64,000 nt of DNA from Bilabrum cf. latius (lineage: Eukaryota): positions 1,054,001-1,118,000 of the forward strand of contig OZ237737.1 of NCBI GenBank assembly GCA_965178125.1, written 5' to 3'. Of this stretch, positions 35,863 through 64,000 are shown piece after piece. Below the pieces are notes generated by a model. The model had not been told where the DNA came from and searched no databases. It saw only the letters and a list, made by a program, of their open reading frames with translations. The position numbers were made by a program, and so were the translations under genes. Each line of letters opens with the position of its first letter. Within the stretch, counting starts at the first letter, position 1.

Positions 35863-36384
35863 ATGGATCAAACCCTAAACCCCACACAACTAACTCATCT
35901 TGCCAATCGTTTCAGCATACCCAATTTCAATTGGATACAATACAAAGATATCTTACATCATGGTTTACCCCAAGGCGATTTCGTACTTTTTTACCCTCAA
36001 GAACAATATGGTAACACCATCAGCGGTCACTACACCTGTGTTATTCAAACTCCCAATGTTATCTATTTCTACGATCCTTATGGCGAACTTCCTGATACAC
36101 ACAAAGTAAACCTTTCTGGTGCACAAAAACAAATCCTCTACGATCGCAAACTCAACCACCAAAACCTCACCAAGTTACTCTGGCAAACTGGTAAGTTAGT
36201 TGATTATTCCCACTACCCACACCAACAATACTCCGATGATATCGCAACATGTGGTCGACACTGCGTCTTACGCCTTGCCAATCGCTAGATGAGCAATGAT
36301 CAATACCACAAGTACCTAAAATACCTTAGCAAACTAAACAATCAACCCAATCTAGATAAACTAGTGTTTCAAATAACTCAGTAA
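35863..36384 (+). CDS. Virophage maturation cysteine protease (adenain-like), element A
   Basis: SGHYTCV, YFYDPYG, HQQYSDDIATCGRHC (His-Asp-Gln-Cys); reads through TAG 36286-36288 to TAA. Confidence 0.9.
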
Positions 36385-36407
36385 TTATTATCACTGGTAG
36401 TAATTAT

Positions 36408-37319
36408 ATGGCAAAAAGTCACGTAATTGATTACCAATACGTAAACCTATAGTAGTTCAACCAAGGCAAAACCGATCTTGAAACCAATCTTGAACAAACA
36501 CGACAATCAACCTTCCTCAAACCCAACAAAGGATACCTGTTTGGCATTGTTAGATGGTTTATTAGCAACGGTGTTGCCTTACCCGTTTTCCAAGCACCAC
36601 TCAATCCACTTTCAATCAGTGTTGAACCCAATTCTGGCACTGCCGAAATAATTGATCTTACCTTTTCCGAGGATCTGTACTACAACATGCAGGATCTCGT
36701 CGCCGAACTCAATGCCTCAATCAAAGTTGCATGTGATAATCTATCCATTGGTACAGGTGATCAACCATCAGTTAGTTTCGACGGTAAACTATTTTCCATC
36801 AACTCCAATACCGCCTTTCGTTCCGCCAATCGTCTTGGATTCAACCCCAGATTAACCCGAATGTTACACACTTTTCGTTTTGAATCAGGCAGCGGCAATC
36901 CATCCGATAGTTGGAACTGGCTACTACTAGAAAATGATCTCGAAACACAATTCACCGATTCACTCGAAAATATCGATCCTGTTGCTCGTATCCTTATCAA
37001 AGCACGGGGTTTACCCATTAATCAAGAATTAACACCTCTACCACTCAACTCACAAGGCAAAATCTCCGATAAAAGCGAAAGTATTGTTACCGATTTTAAA
37101 GTGGTTATGACCAACGGATCTCCTTATAGATCTTTCTTGTATAATGCTAGTAGCACTCCACGATGGACTCAAATGCTGGATGTATCTGGTAGTACTAAAA
37201 ACTTAACCTTTGAATTATACTGGTTAGATTATAGAGGTGTTGAAACAAGAATAAGTTTACCCAGCGAATCAGCCGCCGATATCAAGGGTTTGTTTAAGGA
37301 AATTAGCGAATTCACTTGA
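36408..37319 (+). CDS. Minor capsid (penton) protein, mavirus-like, 303 aa, element A
   Basis: Lies between protease and MCP. ETQFTDSLENIDPVARILIKARGLPINQELTP resembles mavirus penton as I recall it. Tandem TAG TAG at 36450-36455; TGA stop. Confidence 0.82.
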
Positions 37320-37344
37320 TTTTTTTTTCTACAACCTAGTTATA

Positions 37345-38117
37345 ATGAGTGAAATTAACTCTAATCTCCCTTTAGAAATTGGAATCAGCAAAAGCTACCA
37401 ATTTACTGCCCCCTCTCAACTTAAGTACCAAAGTCAAGCCGATGCACGTAATGCGGTTTATGAGGATCACCCATCAACCAAACCACTTTCAAACACTGGT
37501 TGGAGCTACCGTTGGCAGTTTGATCCTGCTGATGGATTGCTTGGTATCCCCGATATGGAATTCTAGAACCTTAGTTTCTTACTAACTCTCAATGGTGGTG
37601 GCAATCTTGTCCCCGATGACCTTAAAAACAACCTTGGTATCGCCACCTTCGGCGAATCATCAGTTGTTGAGAGAATCGATTTCAATCAAGCAGGACAAAA
37701 TATCCAAACCGAGCCATCCAAAATGCGATACATCTGGGCTGGTATGAACTCCATTGAAGTCAACTCCCTTATCACCAATGGTCCTGAACCTGATACCAGT
37801 TCAAAATATGTACCTCTGGCACAAAGCAATGTGCTTCGGGATGGTTTTAACTCCACCTCAAACACCAACACTCGCGGTTTAGGCTTACGTTACAATGCCA
37901 CTCTGGAGGCTGTAGATGCCGCCACCGTTAGATTTACTATTCCCAGTTTAATTTGCCGTCTACCCTCCGATGCTTTTGATTTCAAATCAGAGTACCCAAA
38001 ACCATGCAATAGCATGGATCAATGGAATCTTGAACTAAAACTTAATAACGTTGCCGCCAGCCTTGTTCGTTCTGGTCTTGACGACTTAAGAGTTGCATTA
38101 GAAGGAGGAACTGTAAA
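37345..38117 (+). pseudogene. Major capsid protein of element A, N-terminal ~257 aa, cut by insertion of element B
   Basis: Follows penton and is alignable by eye with the N-terminus of the MCP at 55753. One TAG at 37564-37566; the frame runs into the second palindrome at 38118. Confidence 0.75.
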
Positions 38118-38182
38118 TCTCACACACCACATACCAGGGGGACCTCCAATTTGGAGGTCCCCCTGGTATGTGGTGTGTGAGA
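38118..38182. repeat. 65-bp palindrome (32-bp perfect arms, 1-nt centre) at the left end of element B
   Basis: TCTCACACACCACATACCAGGGGGACCTCCAA-T-TTGGAGGTCCCCCTGGTATGTGGTGTGTGAGA, followed by GTAGGGTA. Confidence 0.97.
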
Positions 38183-38790
38183 GTAGGGTATTTTTTATGT
38201 ACATTTTTCTTTTGTTATAAGTAATTCTTTCCATAAAACGGGTAGAGGGTGGAAATTTAAGTTGCTGAAAAATCATTTTTTTGCAGGTGAAATTTTCAAC
38301 TGCCAAAAATTACGCACTGAGTTACACTGCTACGTTTCACATCTCGGGTTCTATTCCTCTTGCAGAGGAGAGAAATTTGGGGGTCTCCATAGTATTCTGC
38401 GGGGTCCCCCAGGCGGGGGATGTTCAAAAATTCATTTAATATTGCATTGAGAAATCACAGGGATTCTCATTTTCATTTTTTTTTTATTTGGTTGTTGTTC
38501 AGAAAAATCTCATGTTGTTCAAAATACTCGGTTTCATGAAATTTTCAGAACTCAGCCAACTAAAAAAAAAATGGATTTTGAATTTTTTTCTAAGAATGAA
38601 AAAATCTCATTTCCTTTATTTTGAACAACATCCCTACCTTTTCCGACAACAAAACCTTTATTTTGAACAACATTTTGAACAACATAATTATTCGTAACCA
38701 ATTATTTTGAACAACATTTTGAACAACAACGAATAAAATTATAGATAACTAATAATAACCATTTTTTCCCCCTAAATCTGAATAAATAAC

Positions 38791-39070: not shown

Positions 39071-39184
39071 CTTTAGTTTTAAGTTATTTATGGTTTTATT
39101 TTTCAATCAATTGTTTCTCAAAAACTAAAGTACACGTAACTATTTGAGCCCTCCCATAACATTACCTGCATTCTTAGCTTTCCA

Positions 39185-39565: not shown

Positions 39566-39584
39566 TTCAGATTTCCGATCAAAA

Positions 39585-40952
39585 TCAAATGTTAAGCAAA
39601 TTTAGAACGGCACGAATCTAACTATTGGTTAACCCTTTGTAATCGATATTTAAGTTACACAAACCATCTTGCTTTTGAATCACAACCTAAGGTTTGGGTT
39701 TTAGGCGAATTATTGGCTTCAATTTTACTTTGGTTTTCTGTTTGATCCTTACTCGAATCTTAGGCTTCAATTTGATCTTAGGTTTCAATTTGATCTTAGG
39801 TTTCAATTTGATCTCAGGTTCAGGTTCAGGTTCACCCAATAAATTACACGGAATCACATCATCAGCATTGATTGAATATGATTTGTACGTGAGCGAGGTG
39901 CCTACCGAATGCCCCATTGCGGACGCTATTTTCTCCAACTGCTCGCTAGTTAGAGGTTTTGGCTAATTATAGTGATTGGTACAAGCAATCTCACGCCAAA
40001 CACTAGCACTTACCTCTACACCAACTAAGGCTAAACTAATTGCCTTCATCGTTGCTCCGAAATTTTTAACTCGTTTCTTATGACTAACTGTAAGTGGAAT
40101 TAAGTGATCCCCTGGCTCGTAGTACCGTTCCAGCAATTCCGCCATCCGGTTTGATATCACAAACTAACGCTACTGCGTATTACCTGTGCTTTTGCCTTTA
40201 TCTGTTCCTGCATCTATTTTCCACATTCGATCTCTAGTTGAAATGTTACTCAAACCATCTCCATTAATCGTAGTTGCCTACAGCACCTTGGCTCGGAACG
40301 GGGCTACATACAAGATAGCATATATCAGGCAAAATTTCCACGGCTAATCAACGCTATCAACAGATTTAGTGGCAAACCGTTCAACTGCTAATTTTAATGA
40401 GATAGGCGGAGCGGGTTTAATTGCTGTGCTGGTAGCCACGTTCTCTTGTTTGGCACTATCGTAACTCTATTTACTTACCAATCCCAAGAGCTTAATATCC
40501 TCATCTAATCCCTTATGGGTGGCAAGATACTGTTTCATGATACTACTCATGCTCTATATCTCTCTCTCGATTATTACCTATCGAGAGTGGCTAGTGCTCT
40601 TAGTAGGGCAGGTGCATTTCCTTGGGCGCGTTTCAGCGAAAAACCTAAGCATCTCATAATACTGTTTATCGTTCATACCTTTGGGTATTGGATGCTCCAG
40701 TGTTAATCCAAACTGTTCCAAGAACGGCATGATCGAGTTACGGGCAGTGCCCAACTTATTATTAATGGTTTTTATGCTCATCTCCGAGTAGTTCACCTTA
40801 ATCCATTCTTGCAACCTGCAAGTTGATTGCTTTGATTGGGGTTTAACCCATAAACCATGGCGTTCGGCATACCTTTCAATCGATTTGCCTTCCTTCAATA
40901 TTTTAAGCACTTCTGCTTTTGCTTTTTCCTCTAATTGCTTTGATTTATCCAT
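39585..40952 (-). CDS. Tyrosine recombinase family protein (455 aa) with C-terminal (IKLKPK)n tail
   Basis: Three listed ORFs joined over TAGs. Catalytic-type motifs LYVAPFR, DKGK, SASVWRE, IASAMGHSVGTSLTY; TGA stop. Confidence 0.8.
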
Positions 40953-41224: not shown

Positions 41225-42319
41225 TTAATGATTTAATCCTTTCTGTTTGAATCCCATCTGCTTTATGCATAGGTAAAGATCCTCTGATATTACTTTACCC
41301 GCTTTTCTCGCCCGAAACAGTGCAGATTTGTATGGGGATTCCTTGATTGCAAGTGCAAACTCCTTCTAGGATTCAATATGCTTTACCTTGGCGTATTCTT
41401 GATTGATTGCATCCTTGAATTTTATATATATCTTTTCTTTTTCATCTAAAAATGGTTTGAGGTGAGGCAATACTGCCAGAACCTCATTAATCTCTCGATT
41501 AATTACAATTCGCCATAAAGCCTCATGATCCATTTGTTTCCCTGATCGCAAGTACGAGGATTTTACCCATGATTGGGTTTTAAACTTCTTGCGTTTGTAC
41601 TTTTTGCGGTTAGCATCCCACTGTGCAACCACAAACCCCTCTTGATCTGGTTTCAAGGTTTGCAAGAGTACCATCACATCGTATCGCGATTTACACATGT
41701 ATCTTTCCCCCTAAAACGCACCTTTTACCTCTGTTCCATCATTATTGCATATTCCTAGCACGGTGGCAAACTACTTAGGATAATACTCCACTATCCGGTT
41801 GAACGGAGTACATAATTCGTAGATGTATGTTTGCCCTGCACTGGGTTTGAAGATTGCTGGATCGATTTTCTTTTCGGAAGCATCAAACAATTGCCTCCAG
41901 CTGTTATCGTAAATCTAACTTACATTACCCTCGGCAAAACTTCCTCTAGTATTGATCATCAGTTGATCTTTGTGGGTATACGCTAAAATCAAACTCCCAT
42001 CGTACTTAAGCTGCACCTCAAACTCCTCATCCCAATCAATATCATCGATCCCATCCAAATAATCTGGTTTCTCGAAATCATTGAAAAAACGATCAAACGA
42101 TTTTGCTAATACACTATACTATTTGGGTGTACCTGATATCACTAATCCTCTGCAATAATGGCTGATCCAATTTCTTGGAGTGCCCAATTCTTTCTCGTTG
42201 TAGTTGAGAATATACACCTATTCTTCCTGATTTTCCTTTAGTTTTAATTGGTGTTGCTCCGCAAATTCCTAGATATCCTTGCAACTGTTTAATAAACTTA
42301 TCATTTCATCCAATCTCAT
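41225..42319 (-). CDS. T4 Rnl1-type RNA ligase (364 aa)
   Basis: With TAG read-through: CRGLVI, KSFDRFFN, motif I KYDGSLI, INTRGSF, YELCTPFNRIV, EGFVV, KFK; TAA stop. Confidence 0.88.
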
Positions 42320-42486: not shown

Positions 42487-42560
42487 CACTGTACTTAATG
42501 GTTAAACATTCCCTTCAGATTGAGCGAATGTTTCGGGTTCGATTCCTGGCAAGTACAGTG
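42487..42560 (+). ncRNA. Atypical tRNA-like element
   Basis: 10-bp closing stem CACTGTACTT/AAGTACAGTG, AATGGTT D-loop-like sequence without a D stem, 8-bp central stem, T-arm CGGG-TTCGATT-CCTG. Confidence 0.5.
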
Positions 42561-42677
42561 AAATTCTCAAATGAACAATTGCACGATACCAAGGTAGTTG
42601 TGTAGTTTGGGATACCTCGGGTAGACTGTTAATTATATGTTATGTATCGTAGCATGTGTTGATGGAGCTATTGGGGT

Positions 42678-42748
42678 GGGATTATGTTGTAATGGTAACA
42701 TTTATGCCTTGGGCGCATAAGATTTGGGTTCGATTCCCAATAATCCCC
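42678..42748 (+). tRNA. tRNA-Pro(TGG)
   Basis: Acceptor GGGATTA/TAATCCC; anticodon arm TATGC-CTTGGGC-GCATA; T arm TTGGG-TTCGATT-CCCAA. Confidence 0.88.
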
Positions 42749-42750
42749 TC

Positions 42751-42832
42751 GAATCTGTAGTTTAAACGCTCTTTTGTGGAAGAGAGATGCAGGTTTAAAT
42801 CCCGCCAGATCCCGCCAGATCCTGTCAGATTC
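42751..42832 (+). pseudogene. Degenerate tRNA-His(GTG)-like sequence with tandemly repeated 3' end
   Basis: GAATCTG...CAGAT(C/T)C stem; TTGTGGA loop in a CTCT/AGAG stem; D loop missing; ATCCCGCCAG-like unit three times. Confidence 0.5.
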
Positions 42833-42900
42833 TATGTTTATTATATTCACTACTGTTAAAGAAAGTAACCACAATGCTTTTGATAGCAGTAAAAGCTTAA

Positions 42901-42970
42901 CACGATATGGTGTAGTGATAGCATTCTCGCATCTAGTGGAGAGGCGTTGGTTTGATTCCAGCTATCGTGT
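42901..42970 (+). tRNA. tRNA-like gene with CTA at the anticodon position (imperfect)
   Basis: Acceptor CACGATA/TATCGTG; D arm GTGT-AGTGATA-GCAT; loop AT-CTA-GT (42931-42937) in a TCTC(G)C/GGAGA stem with one bulge; T arm GTTGG-TTTGATT-CCAGC. Confidence 0.6.
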
Positions 42971-42993
42971 TAAATGTGGGTAAAGTGAACATA

Positions 42994-43064
42994 TGGATTA
43001 TGTTGTAACGGTAGCATACTAGCCTCATAAGCTAGAGATTCAGGTTCGATTCCTGATAATCCAC
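42994..43064 (+). tRNA. tRNA-Met(CAT)
   Basis: Acceptor TGGATTA/TAATCCA; anticodon arm CTAGC-CTCATAA-GCTAG; T arm TCAGG-TTCGATT-CCTGA. Confidence 0.9.
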
Positions 43065-43178
43065 ATCCAAAGAAAACTAACAGCAACCACATTCCACGAC
43101 TTTTAATCTCGGTTCAATGTTTTCTGCAAAAACATCATTTGTTTCTGGGTTTCTTATTGTAAGAAACTCAAACTCAAA

Positions 43179-43775
43179 TTAACTAGCATTTTGTGTATTT
43201 CTTCTCACGAACACTGGTTTAATTTTACCTTTAACACCATTTTTGTACCATATTTGTGTTCCATAAGAATTAATAACTGCTGGACCATTTTCTCTGTGAA
43301 GTTTGCCATTTATGAACCATTTTTTAGATACATTACCTTGATGATTTATAGTTTCTGCTGGTAGATCACCGTCTCTGTGACGTTTACCATTTTTGTACCA
43401 TGTTTTAGTTGTACGATGCAGTAGTATCCATTTTTCAATAACTGCTGGACCATTTTCTCTGTGAAGTTTGCCATACTTATGCCACATCGTTGTGTCACGC
43501 CATATCGTGTTATTCCACCTAATTGATGGCAAATCATCAATTGAATGTAACTTCCCCCTTAATATAAATATATAATTTGAACCCCAATGCAATCTTACAG
43601 ATTGGCTATCAGTTCTTAGAATTGGTTGAGTTGCTGAATTAACTTGTCTACAAACTGGACACTTGGTTGTATCCAAAGAATTATGGCACTCATTACAAAA
43701 CGTGCCATCTTTACAACATCCATTATGAACATATTTCCAATCATTTATATCCTATAAACAAATACAACATTGCAT
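43179..43775 (-). CDS. RING-like zinc finger fused to MORN-like (WYKNGKLHRENGPA) repeats, 198 aa
   Basis: MQCCICL*DI...HNGCC...FCNECH...KCPVCR upstream of the listed ORF; repeated KLHRENGPAVI; TAA stop. Confidence 0.78.
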
Positions 43776-43802: not shown

Positions 43803-44657
43803 TCAAATCCATTCATCTCTTTCATCTCTGGTAAAACACCAATCTACCACTCTATCAGGATGCCATGCTCGTGCCACTAATTCCTATTTAAGCTTTTTAA
43901 TGTGTTGTTGAGTTACATGCATACGTGAAAAATAATACCACATTAATGATCCATAATATATACAAGATGGTGGATACTTTTCACTCCATGAATGAAAATA
44001 TTGGAGCGAATCGCACCCTTCAAACATCCTTGATGGTCTATAAATTATCAACTTATGACAATCACACTCATCATTAGTCAAATAAGCTTCAACCACAAAT
44101 TCTTCACAAATATCTTCATCAGCAACAGGATTATGATCAACAACAACCTACACAGTATCATATTCCCCATTCTAATTATACTCATTATCCCTTTTCTCCA
44201 AGCACCTTGAGTACTTAATATCATTAATTTCTATATTATCCAGTTTCCATTTAGATAGATCCCGATTGAACTTTTTGCAACCACTGAACATTCCATTAAC
44301 ACATTTTACCTTGGATACATCCCAATAAGAAATATCATCGTTGAATTTCTTACAACCAATAAACATCTCATACATATTTGTTACGTTCGATGTATCCCAA
44401 GTTGGAAGGCATAATTCCTTTCTGGGATATCTTACTGAATCTCGATAGAAACCAAACAAGTTCCCCATATCCTTGATAAACGTAGTTACTGGAATCTCAT
44501 CGAAATGCCATTCTATTCGCTCTTTGAGTTCTTTCTTACTCAAAACAACCCAGTACTCTTTTCCATCTAATTCATGCCATTGATTATCAACGTAGTATTC
44601 CTTGGGTTGGGTTGCTTTTACTGTTACTCCATTTTCTAATAGTTTTAACGCTTCCAT
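43803..44657 (-). CDS. DUF285/BspA-like repeat protein (284 aa)
   Basis: WDTSNVTNMYEMF...FNDDISYWDVSKV...FNRDLSKW; reads through TAGs to ELVARAWHPDRVVDWC; TGA stop. Confidence 0.78.
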
Positions 44658-44682: not shown

Positions 44683-45066
44683 TAAATCATTTTTTTAAAA
44701 AAATGATTATAATCAATTTGCTTGGTTTTAGATCAGAAGCCTGATCATTATTTCTATTTCGTAAAAACGCTCATTTTAATGTTCTTCGGATTTCGTACGG
44801 AAATTCCCTACGATGATCAAGTAAAAAAAATGAGCGTTTTTGAGGGTGGGTTTGATTTGTAGAAAACGTTATTTTCACCATTTTTGAAAATCAAAAATGT
44901 GTGGAAATCGTTTTTTTTTATATATATAGTTAAAAAATGTTCTTAATGTTCTACCCTATATAAAACAAATAAAATCCGTATCAAAGTAAGGAACATTAAA
45001 ATGTTCTCAAATGTTCAAAAATGTTCGATCCCTCTGAACTAAATCAAATATTATTTGATTTTTTAA
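44683..45066. repeat. ~380-bp non-coding direct repeat, copy 1
   Basis: Colinear with 47680-48064; shared blocks include GAAATTCCCTACGATGATCAAGTAAAAAAAATGAGCGTTTTTGAGGGTGGGTTTGATTTGTA and AATGTTCGATCCCTCTGAACTAAA. Confidence 0.92.
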
Positions 45067-47654: not shown

Positions 47655-47679
47655 TATATTATATTCCACTAAATTTTTT

Positions 47680-48419: not shown

Positions 48420-48707
48420 ATGAGTAAACATAATGTAAAGTTAAAGGTGATAGAACTAGATAAAAGTTAGCATGTGTATTAGGTTAGAAACTGCAATACG
48501 GTACTAAAGCTGTTGGCAGAAATGCATTCGGATTTGTTTAAATTGCATCCAATCAGTAGGTTAACAGTTAACCTAATCAAGAAAGGAACTTATAAGGTTA
48601 AGAATGCTGAAGAAGGTGTATCAAAGCACTACAAGGTGGAGGAGGTACCAGTAGATTGGCTACCCATGAGGAAACCATGGGAATGGCTGAAAGTTGATTC
48701 AAATTGA
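48420..48707 (+). CDS. Hypothetical protein (95 aa)
   Basis: ATG 48420 after an AAAAATGA motif; two in-frame TAGs; TGA stop. Confidence 0.6.
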
Positions 48708-48708
48708 G

Positions 48709-48785
48709 TTTTCTCTGGGTGAGTATCTAGCCAGAGATTATTTTGCATTTAATCCGTATCAATTTAGTACGGGATTAAAGGTAAA
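48709..48785. repeat. 77-bp hairpin-containing repeat (other copy 49217-49293; inverted core at ~62601-62646), candidate transcript 3'-end signal
   Basis: Core TTTAATCCGTATCAATTTAGTACGGGATTAAA; each copy lies just downstream of a stop codon. Confidence 0.8.
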
Positions 48786-49191: not shown

Positions 49192-49301
49192 TATTCATGT
49201 ATTTTAAAAACAGGATTTTTCTCTGTGTGAGTATCTAGACAGAGAATATTTTGCATTTAATCCGTATCAATTTAGTACGGGATTAAAGGTAAAAATAGAA
49301 A

Positions 49302-54025: not shown

Positions 54026-55753
54026 TTACATTCCAAGTTTGCTTAAAAGTGCTTGAGTAGAAACGCTCTTACCAGCCACCCGATTTACGCCTTTACCCCT
54101 TTTTCCAGCACCCACTGCTTTGGCAACTTTACCCACAGCGGTATTATCACCAACATAATTCTTTACAATAGGTAGGTTACGGGCAACTTTAGAAACCTCT
54201 TTAAGCACTGGGGCTGCTTTCTTGATTCCGTTCCACAGTCGACCGAAGAAACCACGCCTTCCACCCACGATTGAGGCAGATACTCCATCATCTTTGTAAG
54301 TAACATTAGTAGCGGTTAGGCTCTTAACTGGATCGGCAAGTAACACACGGCTCTCCATCAAACCGTCTTTGAGGTAATTGGCTTCGGAGTTGGCTAGAAT
54401 CATCCATAAGCGGTAACTACCAGCTGCCACTGCAGCACCAGTGGGGTTCTGGATAGTAACAGTAGCCTAGATAGAGAATCTAGCATTCACACCACCTTGG
54501 GTTTCCTGAGGCAGAGGCAATTGGGATGGTTTTATTGCCAACATGCAACCGTTGCCGTAAATTCGGTTGGCACCAACTGAGAAATCCTAGATTAAACCAG
54601 CGAAATGCCCGAATCTGCCGTTATATCCGTTTTTGGTGCTCATTTGCCAGAGTTCATACTGGGAAATCAACCTGCCAATATCTTGTTCACCATTGATGGT
54701 TAGGTTGATGGCAGAAATGGGTAAAAACTAATCAGGCTAGTTGCTTCCAGCCACAGGATCGCGTTCCACGTAACACAGCAACATTTCTGGTGTGTATGCG
54801 AAATCATAAGACTACATCTGGTGCTCAATGCTGCCTGGCACACCGTTTGCAGCGGCTGGAATAGCCTGGTTAGGGCGTTCCTAACGCTTTTGGCGATGTA
54901 CTGAGTTTAGCACAATTCTGTTTGGTTGAGGAACTTCAAGCGCAGGTGTATCGATAGTGAAATCCAGAAACAGGGATGGGTTACCAACTTGGGTAAATGC
55001 TAAATCCTGTCCGCCGACAGTTGAGGCAGACCATATGCGCTATAATCCATTAGAACCAATCTCAAGTTTGAGATCGAACGGTTGCAGGTTCTTGTAAGGA
55101 TTAGGATAGGCATCCTTGAAAGGGAAAAACTTGTTCCATAGGCGCTCCTCCAGAATAATGAGGAATTCGTGTGAGTTGCCAGCAGCTGGACCAACATAGT
55201 ATACAGAGTAACGGTTGCCGAAACCACGGGATTCGTTCTAATCAATTGTATCTAATGAAACGCGGAGTGGATCACTGAGATAATCACGGCTATATGCAGT
55301 GTTTTTATCAGGAACAGGAGCAGGGCTCATTCGGTAACCAATCTCTGGATCGTGGTTATGAGCAAACTCTTTGCTTTCCTAGTAACTCTCACTCACCCAA
55401 GTAGAACCATTGTGATCCACAATGGTACGATCAAACATTCTAGCCAAGGGGAAAGGTTTAACACCAACTCTGCTCTTTAAATCTGCTAGAGCAAGGGCAG
55501 CAGCATTTGCCTTAGCCACTCGAACTCGTTGAATGTATCTTAAAGTAGGTTGATTGAAATCACCTTTTACTGGATTTATAGTCATATTCAAGGTTGCACC
55601 ATTTGCAACAGGATCAGTAAAGGTTAAGCGGTTGTAACCAATCTTGGTGTTACCTGCTTCTACCTGTTGTTTTACTTTGGAAGGATCGAGGAAGTTGTAC
55701 TTTGGATCAACTGCCACACTTACTGGTAAACTTTGTCTTAAGGTTTGAGACAT
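54026..55753 (-). CDS. Major capsid protein, element B (575 aa)
   Basis: Continuous frame over TAGs directly after penton; virophage MCP size; C-terminal IVGG followed by a basic amphipathic tail; TAA stop. Confidence 0.85.
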
Positions 55754-55784: not shown

Positions 55785-56696
55785 TTAATTTAGCTCACTC
55801 ACCTCCACAAATGCTAATTTTGCCGAAACAGAGGTTCGGGCACGAGGCTTCACATCGTACTTAACACCTTTACTATCCAACCAGTAAAACCTGAGTTGAA
55901 TGTTGTTGAACTGGTTTCCAGTTACTGTTGCCCATCGGTGGTTGCCACCAGCACTATAAGTAATTGATTGAAGGTGGCTGCCGTTACTTGGAAAGAAATT
56001 GAAATCGGTAATAATGTTTTCGACCCGAGTAGAAAACTAGCCTTCGGCTGATTCAACTGAATTTGGCAACAACTCGCTGATCATGGGTAACGTACCCTAT
56101 ATTTCAATTCGTTTCACGGGAACTATTGCTTCAAGAGTGGATTCAGGCTGTTGCACTACATCAACATCCAAGAAAAAATAGGGATTCTCCAATGTATCCT
56201 AAGGAATTCTGGGAAAGGTATGGAACATGGCAAACAAGTGCTCATTGAATCCTAAATCGTATCCTGTGGTTAAATCCCGAAAGTTGCTGGTGCTTTCGAT
56301 AAAAAATAGAATGCCATCATAAGTTAACTCAGGAAAATCCACGGGTGAAACTGGAGATGGGTGAGCAGCACAGGCGGTCGCTATTGCAAGATTTATGGCA
56401 GCTACCACTTCTGCCATATTGTAAACAAACTTGTTGCTACCAAAGTTAACATTGGCTGAACTTACAGTGCTTGAAGCCTGATCACGAATGTTAACAGTAT
56501 AAGTTAGCTTAGGATTAGGTTCAAATACTGGAAATACAGCTTGTTCGATATTCCATCGATCCACACTGAGTTTAAAGAGTTTCTCATCAGTCAAAATGTT
56601 GCCAGAGCGCTGTTCCTCTAACAAAGTACGATCTGCAGTGGTAGTTTCTTGGTTGAAGTATCTTAGATTTACATACTGGTAGGTTTTATTGCTCAT
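55785..56696 (-). CDS. Minor capsid (penton) protein, element B (303 aa)
   Basis: Clear homologue of 36408-37319 (YQYVNL..FNQ, YNM, GFN..L..M.HTF); TAA stop. Confidence 0.85.
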
Positions 56697-56724: not shown

Positions 56725-57267
56725 TCACATGGGTCTGAATTGTTCAAACAAGGTAACAAACACATCGGGCTTAACTTTGTGTTGCTTACACTTTTGTAAT
56801 AACCGTTTATTGTACTGTTCATGATTTAAATGCCGATTACTAAGCCGTAGCAAGCAGTGCCTACCACAGGTTGAGATTTGTGGATCATCGATTTGGTGAG
56901 GGAATGGTGAATAATCTATGGTTCGATGATCATTTATTAGTTTGCCTAAGATGCCTTTCTATCGATCTAGGTAGCCAAGGGCTTCTCGCTGTGGGCTGGT
57001 TTTAGTGATTGCATGGGGTAAAAATCCGTATGGATCATAATAGTGGATACGATTGGGATCGAGGCTTTGAATTACGGCACAGTAATGCCCAGATTCGTTT
57101 TTGCCTTGCCGTATCAAAGGGAAAAACAAAACGAAATCCTGATCCTTGCCAGTGGGTAATCCGTGCTATTCAATTTGATCGTTGGTAAAAACAGGCACAT
57201 TGGCTTTCAAGTGTTGCAACTGTTGTGGGCTGAGCCCCGATTTAATTTTATCAAGTAACTGATCCAT
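56725..57267 (-). CDS. Maturation cysteine protease, element B (180 aa), missed by the ORF track
   Basis: DFVLFFP, SGHYCAVIQ, YYDPYG, HQIDDPQISTCGRHCLLRL; two TAGs; TGA stop. Confidence 0.9.
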
Positions 57268-57297
57268 TATGATTATAGTAGTATCCTAGAAATTTGT

Positions 57298-57771
57298 TCA
57301 TGATCCTAGGAATATTTGTAAGTATTTGTCCCCCCGTCGAAATATTTTTTCCAAGTGAGTATGATCACCAAACCAACTAAGCAATGGCATTTTCCCCTCT
57401 TCGTACATAGTAACGTACTTTAAGCGGAGCGATGGTTTATAGTTTTTCAGCGAATCGTAGATAACTTCAACTAAATCTTCATTTTTTACATCAATTGGGT
57501 ATTGCATTTCTCTGTGAAGGGTTCTAAGTAATTCTCTGAGAGTTGGTTTGGCGCTAGGAACTGGGATTGAATAGCGCACTTTGCCTTTATTATCGTGTAA
57601 CAGAGCGATTCTATCACCTTTCTTGATATCAACAACAATAGTTTCAAGCGAATCAAGGGGTTTTGAATTTTTTAGGTTTTCCTCTGAGTTAACAATTGAC
57701 TCATAATCCTGAACTGAGATGTTTAAATCATAACAAACTACAAGATCTGATAGGTTTTTGCAAACAGACAT
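57298..57771 (-). CDS. Hypothetical protein (157 aa)
   Basis: Intact ATG-TGA ORF between the ATPase and the protease. Confidence 0.7.
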   Translation of the reverse strand: MSVCKNLSDLVVCYDLNISVQDYESIVNSEENLKNSKPLDSLETIVVDIKKGDRIALLHDNKGKVRYSIPVPSAKPTLRELLRTLHREMQYPIDVKNEDLVEVIYDSLKNYKPSLRLKYVTMYEEGKMPLLSWFGDHTHLEKIFRRGDKYLQIFLGS

Positions 57772-57804
57772 TTTGCTATATATATATAATGGTAAAAAAA
57801 TAGA

Positions 57805-58827
57805 TCATATCAAACAAACCTGATGGGGCGATATCAAGCAATTGCGTTGCTGGTTTATGGCTACCCAATCGTTTCGGCTTAACAGGCTTTTCACCTTTTT
57901 TATCTCCTTAGCTTTAAATTTCAGATAGTTTTCCATTAGAAACTAATTCTAACGAGGTTTGTTGCGCTAGAAAATTACATAGATGTTAATTTCATTGTGT
58001 AGAGTGCGGGTATTCTAACCCCAAGATGGTAAGTGTGTAATTACAAAGATATCGGTTTCGGTACTTCTACCCTTGGTAAGAATATAATTGATCAAGAACA
58101 GGGCTTTGTTTTGCAGTTCACCGCCTTCCACATCATCAAATATCCATACAGAATTCTTGATCAGCTTCAAAAATCCTTCGGTTACCGAATAGTTGATCTT
58201 TTTCTTTGGCTTCAAGGATTCAACCGCAAGTTTCATTTCAATAACCTCCTCAGGATCTAGTTCGCTCTTATCCAGCATTTTGTAGCGCAGTTTAGCCTCT
58301 TGATATTTTCGTTCGGAACTATCGCCAATGATAAGATCATCGATATCGAGGGTATGAAACTTGGCTTCTTTGAATCGCTTTTCATCATCCTTGCCGTTGA
58401 TCACATACACCTTTTTATTAAATAGTTTCCTAATAATTTTGGCTTGTTCTAGCACCCAGGTAGTTTTACCTGAACCTGCTTTACCCATTATATGGTACGC
58501 AGTTCGGCAATCGCGTGCATCTCGATCGGGATACGGAATAATCGTTCCTTTTTTACTTTTATATTTTCCATGTAGGATCTTTCCTTCCCGCATTTCCTAT
58601 TTAAACTTTTTCTTTAGTTCTGGTAGTTGTCGCTGGTATCTGGTGGCACGAACACCGTATCTCAACCTTAGATCAGATTCACTGATATCGGATTCATCAC
58701 CAGAATCATCATCAGAATCAGAATCATTTTCAGGTGGTTTGCGGTTGTAGTATATAACATCTGGATCATTGCGATTCATATCAAGTGCAACAGGAACACC
58801 ATCTTTTGTATGTCGAGTGGAAATCAT
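57805..58827 (-). CDS. FtsK/HerA (A32-like) genome packaging ATPase (340 aa)
   Basis: Walker A GKAGSGKT, Walker B IFDD, ILTKGRS...ITH, LHNE; joined over TAGs; TGA stop. Confidence 0.9.
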
Positions 58828-58865
58828 TACTATAGGTATATAAAATATTTTCAATGTTATTATAT

Positions 58866-60152
58866 ATGGCAAAAAGCGATGAAAAGTTGCGAAAGATTCT
58901 TAAAGAGCTAACAATTGAGAGATACTCCGGTTTAGCAGAACAAAGAAGAGAAAACATGGAGGAAAACAACCGCCGTGTGAGGCAGGAAAACCGAGCACGT
59001 AAAGAGCAACAAGATCAAGAGAGATTGAGAAAGGCAGGTGTGGTGAGTGAACTTGAACGTACCAGAAATGATTAGGCAACTGGGCGGGTTAAAGCATTAT
59101 TGGGCTAGTTATAGAGGGCAAGAACGGCAACTAGTAGGCAGAGAGTAATAGATGCCTTAGAAGTGAGTTTGTATAGTGGTGATATTATTTTGCCCAAGAG
59201 CCTTAAAGAGATAGAAGCCTAGTTTAAGCGTTTAAATGTTAATAGAGGAAGCAATTAGGCAATACGAAGGTTACTAATTGAAAATGGAGTTCGAGATGCA
59301 TTGTAGTATGCAATCAAGCGTAATCCCAATCGTGTGGATCGTGATCCAATGAGAGAAATACCAGAAGAGGGTTCAAATCCTGTGGGAGAGCGTCCACGAA
59401 GAGTAGATATCGAACCTTGGATTATTGATTCAGTACCTGAACCGGCACCTGCACCTGCACGGGCACGGGCACGAAGACGAGGAGCACGAATACCAGTGCC
59501 ATAGTTGGTACCAGCAGCTGATCTCGCAGAATAGATGGAACAAGGTTTTGCAGGATCTCCTGCTCGTGCTCCTCGTGCTCGGGCTGCTGATGTTGCTCCT
59601 GGCGGACCAGGACCTGGCGGTGATTCCGATAATGATCCTACACCAGCACCAGCACCAGCACCAGCACCAGCACCAGCACCAGCACCAGCACCAGCACGAC
59701 GCAGATCAAGTAGGCAAACCACAGAACCAGATAGGTTAACCGCAAACACAATGGGTAACTTAGGTTCAGCGGAGGGTACATAGGGTATGGGTGCACCTAA
59801 ATCGGGTAAATGGAATCGTACATTACAATCCTAGGCACTGCGTTTAGCTGGATAGATGAGGCGCTAGAATCCTAAATTGAGCCGTGGAGAAGCAATGAAA
59901 CAGGCATTTAAGGCTGTGAAACAATCGAAAATGAAAGGCAAAGGAATCATTGAGGATGCTGGGCGATTTTTGTTTGATGGATTGGTTGGAGCTCCATTGC
60001 GCAAGGTAATCGGTGATAAAGGATTGAAAGCAATTGCACCCAAATCACATCGGAGAATCAATAAATCTGAACGCCGTGCCGGGTTACAAGGCAAAGAAGC
60101 CCAAGAAAAATAGTTTCAATAGGATCGTATTAGGCGTTTGCGTGGATACTAA
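58866..60152 (+). CDS. Arg-rich protein with (PA)n tracts and basic C-terminus, possible core protein (428 aa)
   Basis: Listed ORFs 58854, 59535 and 59877 are one frame across many TAGs; TAA stop. Confidence 0.7.
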
Positions 60153-60218
60153 TTAACTTTATTTGGTAGTAATAACGAAACAAAGTTAACTTAAAAAAAA
60201 TCCTCCAGATAGTTATAG

Positions 60219-60476
60219 ATGTCTGAAAAATCTAGCCCAACTAAACCAACTCCAACAACACCTCAACCAAAAATAGAGATTATTCGTAATTCTCAACCTG
60301 AACCTGAACCTGAATCTGATCCCACATCAAACTATCGTACTGATGTTAAGATTGAGCAAGTGCCGCTTTCAGGTGCAGGTGGTGATGAACCCGCTTACAA
60401 GGTAGTGGTTACTATGACTTGGGATTCACTGAACAAGCAGAGTATATGTGAATTGTTGGCAGCAAGCATGCCTTAA
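60219..60476 (+). CDS. Hypothetical protein (85 aa)
   Basis: Intact ATG-TAA ORF with a PEPEPE tract like other element B proteins. Confidence 0.6.
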   Translation: MSEKSSPTKPTPTTPQPKIEIIRNSQPEPEPESDPTSNYRTDVKIEQVPLSGAGGDEPAYKVVVTMTWDSLNKQSICELLAASMP

Positions 60477-61333
60477 TGCTATTTCTTTTTCTTCTTACCT
60501 CTACCAACTACTCGATTAGCGAATGCACCAACATCGGTTGCAACATTAGCCACCCTTTTGAACAACTGCGGTATGGTAGATGCTGCCTGTTCAACATTCT
60601 AATTGATGAATTGATCCAATTGGCTGGTTAATAAACCATTGGATCGAAGTACATCAGTAACAAATCGCTAACAATTACCTGCATCTGAGCGATCATTGAA
60701 AGCACGATACAAGAAAAATCGATTATTGCCCACGGATTTGAGTGTTTGTTGTACCAGTTGATTCAAAGTGATTTGTTTGCCATTTAGATCAACGTTTAGG
60801 AATTGAGTAAGATTATTTACGGGGAATGTTTTATCAACGTTAACAGCCTCGTTTTTCTCAACCACAAGGGGGGTAGCAACGCCTTGTAATTTTACTGCTA
60901 TTGCAAGATGGTAGAATGAATGGTACTATAAGCTTTGTTTGGCTCGTTTAGTTGCCCCTAGTGAAAGAACGTTTAGCAATCGATTTAAACTTGAACTTAA
61001 GGGTGTTCGTGCTACTTTCATCTGGGTAATAACTCGGTTACCGTATTCTTTTAGGGTTCGCTAACTAGTTTTATTAAAGTTCTTTGTATCAACTCCAAAG
61101 AAGTTCTTAGCCTTATCAACAACTTGGTTAAAACCTTGGCGTAACTTGCCAAACAGTGAGCCACCCATTCTGGTAACTTCGGGTTCTAATGTTTCTAATA
61201 CCATAGGCGCCTCAAGAACGGCTTGTAATTGCGATTTGGTAAACTTTCCGTACCCCTTAACACATTTTTTGATCCTTGGGTTGCGTTTCTTGGCTATCTT
61301 CAGTAATTGTAAAATTTGCTTTCGCTTAAGCAT
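60473..61333 (-). CDS. Permuted papain-like (NlpC/P60, PPPDE/LRAT-type) protein (286 aa)
   Basis: FYHLAIAV...VVEKNE...YRAF...GNC*RFV (His before Asn-Cys); TAA stop. Confidence 0.65.
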
Positions 61334-61382
61334 ATATACTAGATTAGATAAGAATATTTTATGTGGTTTATTATATCTATAA

Positions 61383-62594
61383 ATGGATACAAAGCATCAG
61401 CAACGTGAATTATAGAAGTTGAAAGAGTTATATTATGGTTCAAAAGCCTTTGTAGGTGAGGAAAAATTATACAAGTTTGCGATTCAGAACGGCATTGATT
61501 TGCCACGGCGTGTGGTTAGAGATTGGTTGCAAAAGCAAGAAACATGGCAAATGATGAAACCAACCAAGAAAGTTCGTTCAATTAAACGCTAGGTAATTAG
61601 TGCTCCTTTTAAAAAGTTGCAAATAGATTTGGTGGATTTGAGTTCATCGGAAACCCCACGAGGCATGAAATGGTTGCTAACAGCCATCGATGGTTTTAGT
61701 AAGAAAGCTTACGCAATTGCCATGCCCGATAAGCGAGAGCAAACCGTATTGAATGCTTTGAAACAAATCTTAGAGTAGATGCCCCAACCACCCAGTGTGT
61801 TGTAGAGTGATAATGGCAGTGAGTTCGTAAATCGAGCATTTAAAGCATTTTTAAAAAGCAAGAAAATTAAATAGATCTTGAGTACAGCGGGTAAACCGCA
61901 AACCAATGGATTGGTTGAGAGATTTAATGGAACAATTAAGAGAATGATTAAGGCGGATCGCTTGGATTCGGGTGTGAATAACTGGGATAATAGTTTGGCA
62001 GCCTATTTGAGGGTATACAATCAAACGCCACAAAATACAACCAAGCAATCGCCAGATAATTTAGAGAGGGAGTATCTGGAGAACAAACAGAGTTCTGGAG
62101 TGGATGCAGTTAGAAAAAGAATAAAGAAAAATGCAGGTGAACGTGCCAATGAGTAGCGGTTCAAAGTGGGCGATCAAGTAAGGGTTCGATTGCGATGGGG
62201 ATCTAATGAGAAAAGGGGTGAAAACTGGTCTAAGGATGTGTATACTATAAGATAGGTGTTAAAACCGCGTATGCCGTGGAGTCCGTGGTCCTATTAGGTA
62301 GAAGGATTGCCAACCAGATATTTTACAGAGGAATTGCAGAAGGTGGATGAGGTTGAAAATCCAATTACTTTGCCAGATTAGTATATTATTTCGAGTATTG
62401 TGCGCCCTAGTGTGGTTAATGGGGAGCGTGGATTTGTGGTTCGATGGGTTGGATACAAGGTTCCAGAGTGGAACAGCTATGAAAACATGATCGAAGATGT
62501 GCCCAAACTGGTTTAGGCATTTGAAAAGAAGCACAAAGTAGAATGGAAAAAGAATCCACGTACAAACAAATGGACGTTTACGTGGAAAAAGTAA
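61383..62594 (+). CDS. Retroviral-type (rve, DDE) integrase with C-terminal chromodomain-like region (403 aa)
   Basis: LQIDLVD, TAIDGFSK, L*SDNGSEF, PQTNGLVERFNGTIK, FKVGDQVRV, FVVRWVGY; TAA stop. Confidence 0.93.
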
Positions 62595-62704
62595 TGTAAT
62601 TTTCCTTTTAATCCCGTACTAAATTGATACGGATTAAAAGCAAAATGTGTATTTCTCTGAGTAGATGCCTAGGCATTTCACTAATATTTTAATTTTCATG
62701 GGAT

Positions 62705-64000
62705 TTAATTCTGGCAGTATACCATACAGGCTGCTGGAAAGTAATCATAGGTAGCCTGATCTGGCTTTACTTTGGTGTAAAACACGGTTTTGAAGGCTTG
62801 TTTTAAGGTTTCGATGATGCGTAGGAAACGGGGGATGCTCCTATCTACATCAAAACTATATTCTAACACCAGTTTTTGGATGCCATGGTGTTGGTAAGTT
62901 GCTGGTTTAAGTGTTTCGAGGATCTCGATTTCAGCACCCTCGATATCCATTTTAATGCAGTTGCAATCAGCCCGTTCCAAAGCCTCAAAAATATTTTCTA
63001 CAGGGATATCAACAGTTGTACGCCCTCTTACGGGATGCAAGGTATGCCTGTATTTGTTGTAATCTCCTTTGCACAGGTAGAGTTTTTGAGTTCCAGTGGG
63101 TTTTGTAGAAACCCCTGATTCAACAATTTTCCATCCACCCCTAGGTTTAGGAAAGTTGAGTTCCAGGTTTTTTTGTAGTATTTCAAGGTTATCCCGTTCT
63201 GGTTCATAGCAGGTTACAGAGCACCCCCGCGATAAGGCAAGTAAGGCGAATGTGCCGATATTGGCACCAAGATCTAGCCATCGTTCCTTTGGATCAGATC
63301 CCACTTCGAACTAAACTTTTGGTTTATCGTAAGAGTTCCTGGTAAGCACCTCACCAATTACAGTTTGATCTGTGGTTTTGGGGCGAACCCAGAGTTTAAG
63401 ATCGAGTTTTCGTTTGGGTAAAACTACATCAATTAATTCTTGTGAGGCGGCTTTACTAGAAGGTTTGGATTGGGTACATTTTTGCATGTTTTCTCGGTAG
63501 TAGTAAACCATTGATAATCTGCACCAATCTGATCCATCTGGCACTATTTCTGTATTACAGTGCAACTGGTGAGGATCTATTAAGATAAAATCGCCGTGGC
63601 GAACATCAACACAAACGCCGAACTTAGGAAAACCCAGGTATCCGCCCTTGTAAGAATTCTTGCCATCCTCGGCAACTACTACAGCACTGTATCCATTGTG
63701 ATAATCACCTGAATCCTTGTGGCAAGCGGTTCGCCAGTTGTAATTTACGGTGATGGTAGAAAATGCAGTATCGTTGATTTGGTAATCGGGAGTTTTTTTA
63801 GCCATGCCGTGCTGTTCGTGATGGCGTTCTGGTTCGAACTCGCTGTATGCCTTATCAACCTAATTAATTAATGGTTTTAAGTTGTTCCATTTGGCTTGGT
63901 ATTTGCTGGTATAGCTGGTAGTTCTGCAGGGTACGAGTTTCTTGGCTAAGATTTCTCGTTTATCTCTGATTCGGGGTTTATCGTAGTAGCCAACAATCAT
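62705..64000 (-). CDS. TET/JBP-family 2OG-Fe(II) dioxygenase fused to FkbM-family methyltransferase (probably 5'-partial)
   Basis: GYYDKP..CRTTSY..FSTITVNYNWRTACHKDSGD..HQLHCNTEI..RLSMVYY, in frame across TAG 63311-63313 with LDLGANIG..YEP..IKMDIEGAE; TAA stop. Confidence 0.82.

Follow-up and report, generated by a model that had tools for sequence, protein, structure and literature searches.

The final 28.5 kb of the window (the whole stretch of 64,000 nucleotides analyzed) are best explained as endogenous virophage DNA of the mavirus type that forms a low-GC island and whose elements share the TAG-sense code of their host, with TAG most likely read as Gln. The host would be a GC-rich, intron-bearing protist with UAG as a sense codon and UAA and UGA as stops. 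In the island, a single well-preserved element probably stands beside a truncated capsid module and accessory genes in mosaic arrangement; as assembled, it lies within a transcribed host gene. We assign this explanation as a whole a probability of about 0.8.

TAG is a sense codon in virophage and host genes

In the virus and host genes of the window TAG is sense, and TAA and TGA terminate. When TAG is treated as sense, the interval 35863-64000 yields 25 ORFs with a minimum length of 115 aa. Their 7,576 codons include 109 in-frame TAG, 0 TAA and 0 TGA; 19 ORFs end with TAA, six with TGA and none with TAG. The same DNA read off-frame contains 488 TAA, 228 TAG and 444 TGA in 15,152 triplets. In-frame TAG was found in 23 of the 25 ORFs, being absent only from the SET ORF and the 157-aa ORF u157, and in 17 of the 18 ORFs with family or homologue support, in agreement with the initial annotation, which had described viral genes with in-frame TAG and TAA or TGA ends. 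TAG amounts to approximately one-fourth of the presumed Gln codons of the virophage. Stop-to-stop ORFs of 150 aa or more covered 0.29 of 35863-64000 with the standard code, 0.80 with TAG freed from the stops, 0.58 with TAA freed and 0.38 with TGA freed. For the best-preserved element (element 2, taken as 49214-62646 for this test; ORFs of at least 100 aa), the respective values were 0.44, 0.96, 0.82 and 0.62, and the coding-density comparison proposed earlier came out for the TAG-free reading.

The GC-rich host genes beside the island also read TAG as sense, indicating that the code belongs to the host. A giant HECT ubiquitin ligase gene (6593..28321, + strand) is a single open ORF of 7,242 codons that ends with TGA and matches HECT (1.6e-57) and NPCBM (3.5e-8). 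It contains 28 in-frame TAG, 0 TAA and 0 TGA, and its DNA read off-frame 23 TAA, 43 TAG and 245 TGA. The three exons of a Kelch-repeat gene (31301..33040, − strand; 31301-32002, 32203-32460 and 32555-33040) are spliced together in contigs from the X6 and X7 runs at joints with CT..AC ends; Kelch families were matched in all three, and two of the three in-frame TAG codons lie within the Kelch match. One further in-frame TAG is present in a cysteine-rich gene (33170..35237, + strand) composed of many small exons with GT..AG introns. That the elements use the TAG-sense code of their host, as had been proposed, is borne out by this readthrough in the neighboring genes.

One capsid gene is cut short and the island is rearranged, as might be expected if the TAGs were nonsense mutations in dead, decaying insertions. 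Equally common TAA and TGA interruptions had been named beforehand as evidence against recoding, but all 109 interruptions were TAG, although TAA and TGA together make up 0.70 of the one-step mutation paths to a stop. With a TAG share of 0.30, this outcome has a log10 P of about −57. In addition, the ORFs are full length against relatives, copies of the first protease and penton genes in runs X4/X5 differ from the window synonymously in five of five cases, and the host genes show the same TAG pattern. Decay was therefore excluded, its remaining probability being practically negligible.

TAG=Gln (code 15) phages have a code unlike that of their bacterial host and supply their own suppressor tRNA. 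The island could have been suspected of recoding in the same manner, alone and in a host with the standard code, because it carries five tRNA-like units in tandem (42488..43065, + strand) that adjoin a tRNA-repair-type RNA ligase. This T4 Rnl1-type enzyme (41225..42319, − strand; PF09511, 6e-15) has seven TAG and ends with TAA. Two of the units are intact, tRNA-Pro(UGG) at 42678-42748 and tRNA-Met(CAU) at 42994-43064, and three are degenerate. The degenerate unit at 42901-42970 carries CUA and scores 37.2 bits against the Rfam tRNA model (gathering score 29). However, its CUA lies in a 6-nt loop, two stem pairs are mismatched, and ARAGORN missed it with default parameters and reported Arg(UCU) with relaxed ones; no credible viral tRNA(CUA) was found in the island. 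Self-recoding is contradicted by the host HECT and Kelch ORFs, which themselves require TAG readthrough, and we regard it as very improbable.

Gene content of the island

The low-GC island extends from about 35.5 kb to the end of the window and encodes capsid, penton, protease, ATPase, rve integrase and accessory proteins. The matches of the predicted capsid, penton and integrase and the gene order support a virophage-type identity of its elements. The island is a rearranged mosaic in which the ends of the elements are not settled.

The first capsid module (35863-38182) is encoded on the + strand. It starts with a cysteine protease gene (copy 1, 35863..36384; one TAG, TAA end; 44% identical to copy 2), which in tblastn matched ORFs between ATPase and penton in the relative loci L008, L012 and L004. 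It is followed by penton (minor capsid) protein copy 1 (36408..37319; two TAG, TGA end; 34% identical to copy 2) and by an N-terminal fragment of the major capsid protein (copy 1, 37345..38149; one TAG). The latter is broken after approximately 268 codons at a perfect 32 + 32 nt palindrome (38118-38182), and a contig of run X4 spans 35859-38118, beyond which its sequence differs from the window. The earlier statement that there are no frameshifts holds in that none were seen, but this capsid copy is not intact.

In the middle of the island, a 455-aa ORF without assigned family (39585..40952, − strand; 10 TAG, TGA end) has a GHS..T..Y motif hinting at a tyrosine recombinase, which no search backed. 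Beyond the ligase gene and the tRNA array follow, all on the − strand, a putative RING finger and repeat protein (43179..43775; one TAG; a weak match below the Pfam cut-off), a DUF285 protein (43803..44657; 1e-21; three TAG) and a D5-type primase-helicase (45063..47669; DUF5906; 12 TAG, TAA end) with 13,421 relatives at E ≤ 0.001. Direct repeats of approximately 380 nt lie on both sides of the last gene (44679-45061 and 47676-48058). An 80-nt repeat with a hairpin (copy A, 48706..48785) recurs as copy B (49214..49297), between the 3′ ends of convergent ORFs, and as copy C (62597..62675), which is inverted with respect to A and B and also lies between two convergent ORFs.

Element 2 has seven accessory ORFs, which together contain 20 TAG and all end with TAA: 49302-49721 (−), 49773-50393 (−), 50441-51091 (+), the TAG-free SET ORF 51128-51502 (−), 51535-52182 (−), the GIY-YIG ORF 52229-52852 (+) and 53109-54002 (−). 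The second and the last of these have homologues in L012/L009. The full-length major capsid protein (copy 2, 54026..55753, − strand; 575 aa, nine TAG, TAA end) matched Pfam MCP_V20_C (4e-15), PDB chain 6g45_A over nearly its full length (3.6e-32, approximately 25% identity) and Sputnik V20 (3j26_A, 9.4e-9), and penton copy 2 (55785..56696, − strand; three TAG) matched 6g41_A, annotated as "Minor capsid protein" (8e-14); we take 6g45 and 6g41 to be the mavirus capsid and penton. Next to them on the − strand are cysteine protease copy 2 (56725..57267; two TAG, TGA end), for which Pfam and PDB searches gave no match, u157 (57298..57771; family unassigned, no TAG) and the packaging ATPase (57805..58872; five TAG, TGA end). 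The ATPase has homologues in L012, L009 and L004, a PHROG terminase match (6.8e-8) and matches below the cut-off to ATPase_2 (1e-4) and Pox_A32 (0.006). A putative 455-aa ORF rich in Pro/Ala and Lys/Arg (58785..60152, + strand; 15 TAG) gave no homologue in searches, and the case for a gene is its open frame. The 286-aa ORF u286 (60473..61333, − strand; five TAG, family unassigned) contains the GNC-TAG-RF site and has one homologue, in L001; its designation as papain-like was not backed by searches of Pfam, PDB and PHROGs, which yielded no match. The rve (DDE) integrase (61383..62594, + strand; rve 1.7e-19; 10 TAG, TAA end), whose C-terminal part resembles a chromodomain, is followed by a fusion of a TET/JBP dioxygenase (Tet_JBP, 3.5e-25) and an FkbM-type methyltransferase (Methyltransf_21, 8.2e-8) that reaches the window edge (62705..64000, − strand; two TAG, TAA end).

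The catalytic motifs are intact, as had been noted: integrase D82/D85, D143 and E179 are invariant across 24 aligned sequences, the ATPase has the Walker A motif GKAGSGKT, and both protease copies show their His and Cys motifs. Protein lengths are similar to those of relatives (integrase, 403 versus 389-406 aa; capsid, 575 versus 569-610; penton, 303 versus 299-311). The gene order ATPase-ORF-protease-penton-capsid is the same as in locus L012 and is the mavirus order (PMC8547959). The sampled virophage relatives themselves use the standard code. The standard-code ORF coverage of 23 locus records, several of which represent the same contig twice, was 0.76-0.98, and the eight loci examined use TAG as stop in one to five genes each.

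The residue encoded by TAG

Comparison of the predicted proteins with relatives, an indirect and in places weak line of evidence, suggests Gln as the best-fitting residue for UAG. In the closest relative of the integrase (P0001, 82% identical), the 10 TAG sites correspond to Q in seven cases, E in two, H in one and K or R in none, compared with a Q retention of 0.88 at true-Q sites. The sequence of P0001, like those of other library entries, could have been produced with TAG translated as Q, which would make this comparison partly circular. Across the three next-closest relatives (42-55% identity), 9 of 29 TAG cells contain Q, a frequency of 0.31 versus 0.33 at true-Q sites. In the same cells, K reached 0.10 versus 0.52 at true-K sites, E 0.17 versus 0.41 and R 0.21 versus 0.33, so that, calibrated on the query's own codons, K, E and R fit worse than Q. 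Three of the nine TAGs of capsid copy 2 stand opposite Q in 6g45_A, none opposite K. A self-calibrated likelihood over IMG/VR relatives was best for Q (relative to Q: R −4, K −10, E −41), and in an emission-profile test, true-Q sites were the closest to the TAG sites in 755 of 1000 bootstraps. At position 48940, the window has CAG and other copies have TAG, the one CAG/TAG polymorphism between copies.

Both TAG codons singled out in the initial annotation as family-typical Gln positions were located where indicated. At u286 residue 222 (60668-60670), the sole homologue found has Q. At integrase residue 141 (61803-61805), 10 of 23 relatives have Q and 12 have R, and solved retroelement integrases have T, H or N. 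A better example is the TAG of integrase site 164, where Q was found in 16 of 23 relatives.

We consider it quite unlikely that TAG is sense in host and virophage but encodes Lys, Arg or Glu, given the calibrated frequencies and likelihoods, the lack of K and R at the TAG sites in P0001 and the CAG/TAG polymorphism. Such a reading would agree with the 235 of 1000 bootstrap resamples that fell to K, with R at integrase site 141, and with raw profile scores over 22 TAG sites, which rank K first, followed by E (−7.1) and Q (−8.6). For the primase-helicase, raw scores against 45 distant relatives likewise put K and E above Q, with K in 26 of 45 at site 585. UAG as Glu and UAG as Leu are described for other eukaryotes in the available literature. 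The three TAGs of penton copy 2 stand opposite D, E and T in the mavirus-type penton, and the window's own paralogues have H, N, H, R, Y, S, K, K, I, K and N opposite TAG.

Integration, known systems and implications

The X6/X7 contigs leave the window sequence at 35237 within the cysteine-rich host gene, which indicates that the island interrupts the gene there. A perfect 28 + 28 nt palindrome (35237..35292) marks this break, at which short-read contigs end or diverge, and X4/X5 contigs link 35559 with 39630 across opposite strands; the window may therefore show just one of several arrangements, or one created in part by assembly. Together with the palindrome at the capsid break, these observations would also fit an island that is absent from this host locus, the join being an assembly artefact or the DNA free, episomal or elsewhere in the genome. 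Among the pieces listed, none bridges 35292 to 35859, and mean word depth in X4 is 240.7 for the contig with the capsid module versus 33 for the host flank, depth not being equal to copy number. We nevertheless regard this as unlikely: the rare code common to host and island ties both to one cell, host flank and island sequence occur together in X4 (organism A) and X5 (organism B), and endogenous mavirus-like elements are described as mosaic, multi-copy, truncated insertions (PMC8547959). The code finding would remain unchanged in either case.

The island resembles the endogenous mavirus-like elements (EMALEs) of Cafeteria burkhardae and mavirus itself in several respects (PMC8547959). The virophage DNA is low in GC and the surrounding flagellate-type genome high; the genes for capsid, penton, protease, ATPase and rve integrase keep the mavirus order, and a primase-helicase gene lies close by; the genes lack introns, and copies are multiple, mosaic and in part truncated. 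It differs in that no protein-primed polymerase was seen in the island and no terminal inverted repeats flanked by host DNA could be delineated. For EMALEs and the nuclear genes of their host, the available text describes no nuclear code change, only mitochondrial UGA=Trp, whereas here TAG is sense in host and element.

The view that no stop-recoded virophage has been described agrees with a full-text literature search, which found none for virophages proper, but there is a precedent in Streblomastix strix, whose polinton-like endogenous viral elements use the host's TAA/TAG=Gln code, which the authors interpret as evidence of a long-standing association (Bellas et al. 2023, PMC10120064). Both cases represent integrated small DNA viruses of a protist in the host's reassigned stop-codon code. 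The Streblomastix elements belong to the Metamonada capsid cluster of polinton-like viruses and have no virophage-type capsids, and TAA and TAG are both reassigned (PMC10120064); here TAG alone is, and TAA is the commonest stop (19/25). Like the crAss-like and Lak phages of code 15 (PMC9523058), the elements have genes that abound in in-frame TAG, with Gln as the assigned residue, and that standard gene callers overlook, but here the code is that of the host. That standard-code calling would miss the lineage agrees with the low standard coverage of element 2, but the window's primase-helicase is present in a public protein library (P0121) with Q at every TAG.

As virophage proteins are made on host ribosomes, the virophage lineage would have drifted into the code of its host. 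The elements may be active now or have been so recently, and expression of their genes would require cells, and a helper giant virus, able to tolerate the TAG-sense code. The helper would then have to share the code, and the virus would be "locked" to such a host. In GVMAGs V2, some giant-virus metagenome genomes are best annotated with non-standard codes; these eukaryotic DNA viruses likewise show single stop-codon reassignments, with code 15 among those tested (PMC13524828). The codes were picked there by annotation score, and the main text, which deals with giant viruses, contains no occurrence of "virophage". Such recoded giant viruses are candidate helpers for a recoded virophage.

TAG as a sense codon in island and host

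The G+C content was 52–68% in bases 1 to ~35,200 and 33–44% in the remainder of the window, which appeared nearly non-coding under the standard code. With TAG read through, this low-GC part contained 25 closely spaced ORFs of 115–868 aa, with lengths in agreement with those of relatives. In 35863–64000, ORFs of at least 150 aa gave a cover of 0.80 when TAG was freed, exceeding the values for the standard code (0.29), freed TAA (0.58), and freed TGA (0.38). In element 2, the best-preserved virophage element, cover was likewise lower with TAA or TGA freed than with TAG freed.

The 25 island ORFs comprised 7,576 codons with 109 in-frame TAG (~1.4 per 100 codons) and no TAA or TGA, and they ended in TAA (19 ORFs) or TGA (6 ORFs), never in TAG; off-frame, the same DNA held 488 TAA, 228 TAG, and 444 TGA triplets. 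At least one TAG was present in 23 of the 25. The initial annotation was thus right that most viral genes carry in-frame TAG and end in TAA or TGA, and interruptions by the latter two were absent rather than equally common. The TAGs it had reported at 61803–61805 in the integrase and at 60668–60670 were both found there. An origin of the TAGs as nonsense mutations was rejected: the share of TAG among one-step paths is ~0.30, and 109 TAG out of 109 correspond to a log10 P of ~−57.

The host genes beside the island showed the same pattern. The HECT ORF (6593–28321, + strand) has 7,242 codons with 28 TAG and no in-frame TAA or TGA, and ends in TGA; its HECT domain (1.6e-57) is C-terminal, and two of the TAGs fall within an NPCBM domain. 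Short-read contigs from the sequencing runs X6 and X7 skip, between 31.3 and 35.2 kb, segments of 85–285 nt that have GT..AG (or CT..AC) ends, and are therefore spliced products. The joined exons encode a Kelch-repeat protein (31301–33040, − strand) with three in-frame TAG, two of them inside the Kelch match. Because both host genes carry in-frame TAG, the TAG-sense code belongs to the host cell and is no private code of the virus. Both complete host ORFs likewise end in TAA or TGA, and these two codons still terminate. The 7,242-codon gene is intronless and its neighbours have many short introns, with exons down to 27–37 nt (33551–33577, 33693–33729, and 33832–33860).

Residue at TAG

Residue typing by alignment was confined to the viral genes because the host regions tried gave no relatives: residues 4380–4860 of the HECT protein had no match in a protein search, and the SPRY/NPCBM stretch had only a low-complexity match in the PDB. 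TAG sites were calibrated on the query's own codons since distant relatives are uninformative; raw substitution and profile scores from distant primase-helicase relatives mirrored the K/E/Q background.

At the ten integrase TAG sites, the closest integrase relative (P0001, 82% identical) shows seven Q, two E, one H, and no K or R; in the 24-row alignment it retains true-Q sites at a rate of 0.88. P0001 may in turn owe its Q residues to TAG=Q translation: the primase-helicase encoded in the window at 45063–47654 (− strand) stands in the public representative protein library as P0121, with each of its 12 TAGs rendered as Q. TAG=Gln has therefore been applied to the DNA of the window by at least one gene-calling pipeline. 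The earlier expectation that standard-code gene calling would miss this lineage thus holds for ORF cover of the element, which was only 0.44 under that code, but not for this library entry.

In the next three integrase relatives (42–55% identical), Q was found in 9 of 29 TAG cells, a frequency of 0.31 versus 0.33 at true-Q sites; the corresponding values were 0.10 versus 0.52 for K, 0.17 versus 0.41 for E, and 0.21 versus 0.33 for R. At integrase site 164, 16 of 23 relatives have Q. Capsid TAGs aligned to Q at three and to K at none of nine positions of 6g45_A, and in tblastn against IMG/VR relatives with X at TAG, Q was the best class (R −4, K −10, E −41). In an emission-profile test, 755 of 1000 bootstraps put TAG closest to true-Q sites and 235 put it closest to K. 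At position 48940 the window has CAG and other copies have TAG. Penton TAGs aligned to D, E, and T; the window's own paralogues (23–44% identical), which are too divergent to type TAG, had no Q opposite it.

The calibrated alignments thus lend moderate support to Gln at the TAG sites, as the initial annotation had proposed, with Lys second. Taken together, UAG most probably stands for Gln (probability approximately 0.85–0.9), and Lys is the runner-up. Of the presumed Gln codons, 109 of 416 are TAG in the island and 28 of 270 in the HECT gene.

Gene content and structure of the island

The 575-aa ORF at 54026–55753 (− strand) matched Pfam MCP_V20_C (4e-15) and, with X at TAG, the PDB entries 6g45_A (3.6e-32, residues 57–558) and Sputnik V20 3j26_A (9.4e-9); capsid matches to profile A3 were at 1.2e-103 and 2.4e-36. 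These similarities identify a virophage-type major capsid protein with a predicted double jelly-roll, a fold that an AlphaFold model from a five-row alignment did not confirm (pLDDT 43, pTM 0.31). The capsid protein alone retrieved no relatives among viral contigs or in a word-indexed protein search, and tblastn of capsid and ATPase against a phage record collection was also negative. A penton gene immediately precedes the capsid gene in both copies, and the product of the one before the 575-aa ORF matched 6g41_A ("Minor capsid protein", 8e-14); we take 6g45 and 6g41 to be mavirus proteins. A second, divergent protease-penton-capsid module is located at 35863–38149.

The integrase matched rve (1.7e-19), and its catalytic D, D, and E are invariant across the alignment, in line with the earlier statement that catalytic motifs are intact. 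The candidate packaging ATPase of the FtsK/HerA-A32 type has a Walker A motif and homologues at the matching position in three related viral-contig loci (L012, L009, and L004); its matches to ATPase_2 (1e-4) and Pox_A32 (0.006) are both below the curated Pfam cut-offs, and it matched a PHROG terminase at 6.8e-8. The candidate adenain-like cysteine protease had no match in Pfam, PDB, or PHROGs; it has His and Cys motifs and syntenic homologues in four related loci. PHROGs gave no match for seven of eight island proteins. PDB searches with the ORFs 60473–61333 and 39585–40952 and with protease 2 returned nothing significant, leaving the "papain-like" label of the former ORF and a tyrosine-recombinase label of the latter unsupported. 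The gene order ATPase-ORF-protease-penton-capsid recurs in locus L012 and, according to the published description, in mavirus (PMC8547959). By its capsid, penton, and rve integrase, the element is classified from sequence as an endogenous virophage of the mavirus type. No giant-virus sequence was found within the 64-kb window. At 62705–64000 (− strand), just outside a hairpin repeat, a low-GC gene with two in-frame TAG encodes a TET/JBP-type dioxygenase fused to an FkbM-type methyltransferase and runs off the window; it is a possible DNA-modification gene, either from the virophage or from a third element.

Contigs from 4 of 12 runs were compared with the window, covering 40 of 125 single-letter differences. 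An X4 contig spans 35859–38118 and then diverges from the window, and other contigs join 41419 to 44726, 42487 to 42994, and, on opposite strands, 35559 to 39630. Several arrangements therefore exist, and the island is a mosaic. X4 contig depth, which is not copy number, was 33 in the host flank, 240.7 in the capsid module, 134.6 in the primase-helicase, and 124.5 at the start of element 2. Differences between copies were synonymous in 5 of 5 cases in protease 1/penton 1 and in 8 of 13 in the primase-helicase, which fits recent activity. The spliced, RNA-like X6 and X7 contigs did not cover the island except for X7 traces (depth 1.38) at 38005–38671 and 40006–40672, and are uninformative on expression.

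Perfect palindromes lie exactly at the host/island break where the spliced contigs depart from the window (35237–35292, 28 + 28 nt, no spacer) and at the truncation of capsid gene 1 (38118–38182, 32 + 32 nt, 1-nt spacer); either fold-back repair or faulty assembly could have produced them. A 277-nt stretch between the first palindrome and the first viral gene (35263–35539) recurs in a spliced-type X6 contig that differs on the far side, and may be a fragment of some other host transcript that was moved here. Direct repeats of ~380 nt (44679–45061 and 47676–48058, 86–89% identical) flank the primase-helicase gene and resemble a cassette boundary or an intergenic region that was duplicated.

A 50-nt inverted pair (49248–49297 and 62597–62646) was not accepted as proven termini: it encloses no replication gene, further TAG-bearing low-GC genes lie outside, and it belongs to an 80-nt element with two hairpins that is present three times (48706–48785, 49214–49297, and 62597–62675), twice exactly between convergent 3' ends. 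More than genome termini, this element resembles a shared signal for transcript ends, which recalls the hairpin rule of mimivirus transcripts. Start codons of the 23 island ORFs considered were nearly all in TATA(A)ATG, TAAATG, or TATATG contexts with AT-rich leaders (e.g., 54003–54025 and 61334–61382), a pattern that brings to mind late promoters in large DNA viruses. A TCTA promoter-like motif, seen by eye in ~10 of 23 upstream stretches, was dismissed as near a rough chance estimate.

Five tandem tRNA-like units (42488–43065) lie beside an Rnl1-type RNA ligase, of the tRNA-repair kind. The Pro(UGG) and Met(CAU) units are intact and mutually 74% identical, and three are degenerate. An X4 contig skips 42488–42993, so copies differ in how many units they carry. 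The island might bring its own translation hardware, with a CUA-loop unit, here or in better-preserved copies, as a virus-borne UAG decoder. The only CUA-bearing unit in the window is malformed, with CUA in a 6-nt loop, and we consider this very improbable. If true, the reassigned codon would not merely be inherited from the host: a virophage-like element of eukaryotes would be helping to enforce it or exploit it, as recoded phages do.

Relatives, decoding, and implications

Integrase and capsid alignment scans gave 83 loci, of which 23 locus records were looked at, several being one contig twice over: the top integrase matches (L001–L012, five with capsid-module genes) and capsid matches (L073–L083). 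In these, standard-code ORF cover was 0.76–0.98 and freeing TAG added little; in the eight records viewed in detail, TAG was the stop of one to five genes each. The closest identities among the 23 were ~38% (integrase) and ~27% (capsid). One of the capsid scans, run on metagenomes with a three-row alignment, gave seven loci, all ~25% identical and in standard code, with no close or recoded relative. Within this limited sample, the lineage in the window was the sole recoded one found.

The host would decode UAG by a cognate tRNA and stop at UAA and UGA. Translated by the same ribosomes, virophage mRNAs could use TAG as a free synonym, and TAG stops would be lost from virophage genes. A standard-code cell would be expected to truncate the products of such genomes.

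It has been suggested that viruses meet a barrier in cells with a reassigned stop codon. Here, a whole small-virus lineage has passed this barrier and settled, every sampled relative using the standard code. In kind, the element comes closest to the endogenous mavirus-like elements of Cafeteria, for which no nuclear code change is reported (PMC8547959). A full-text literature search, to which supplementary tables are inaccessible, found no virophage with a changed code; the initial annotation's claim that none has been described stands to that extent, but polinton-like elements of Streblomastix strix, written in a TAA/TAG=Gln code, offer a precedent for the phenomenon (PMC10120064). A catalogue of giant-virus genomes with non-standard codes also exists (PMC13524828).

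The host is a GC-rich, intron-bearing protist with UAG-only reassignment, of which few cases were among the matches listed. With a standard-code cover of only 0.44, surveys of endogenous virophages and polinton-like viruses would undercount such elements in recoded hosts unless codes are tested. Virophages need a giant virus alongside in order to multiply; one that is active in the same UAG-sense cell is therefore predicted, and there is now a concrete host in which to search for it.
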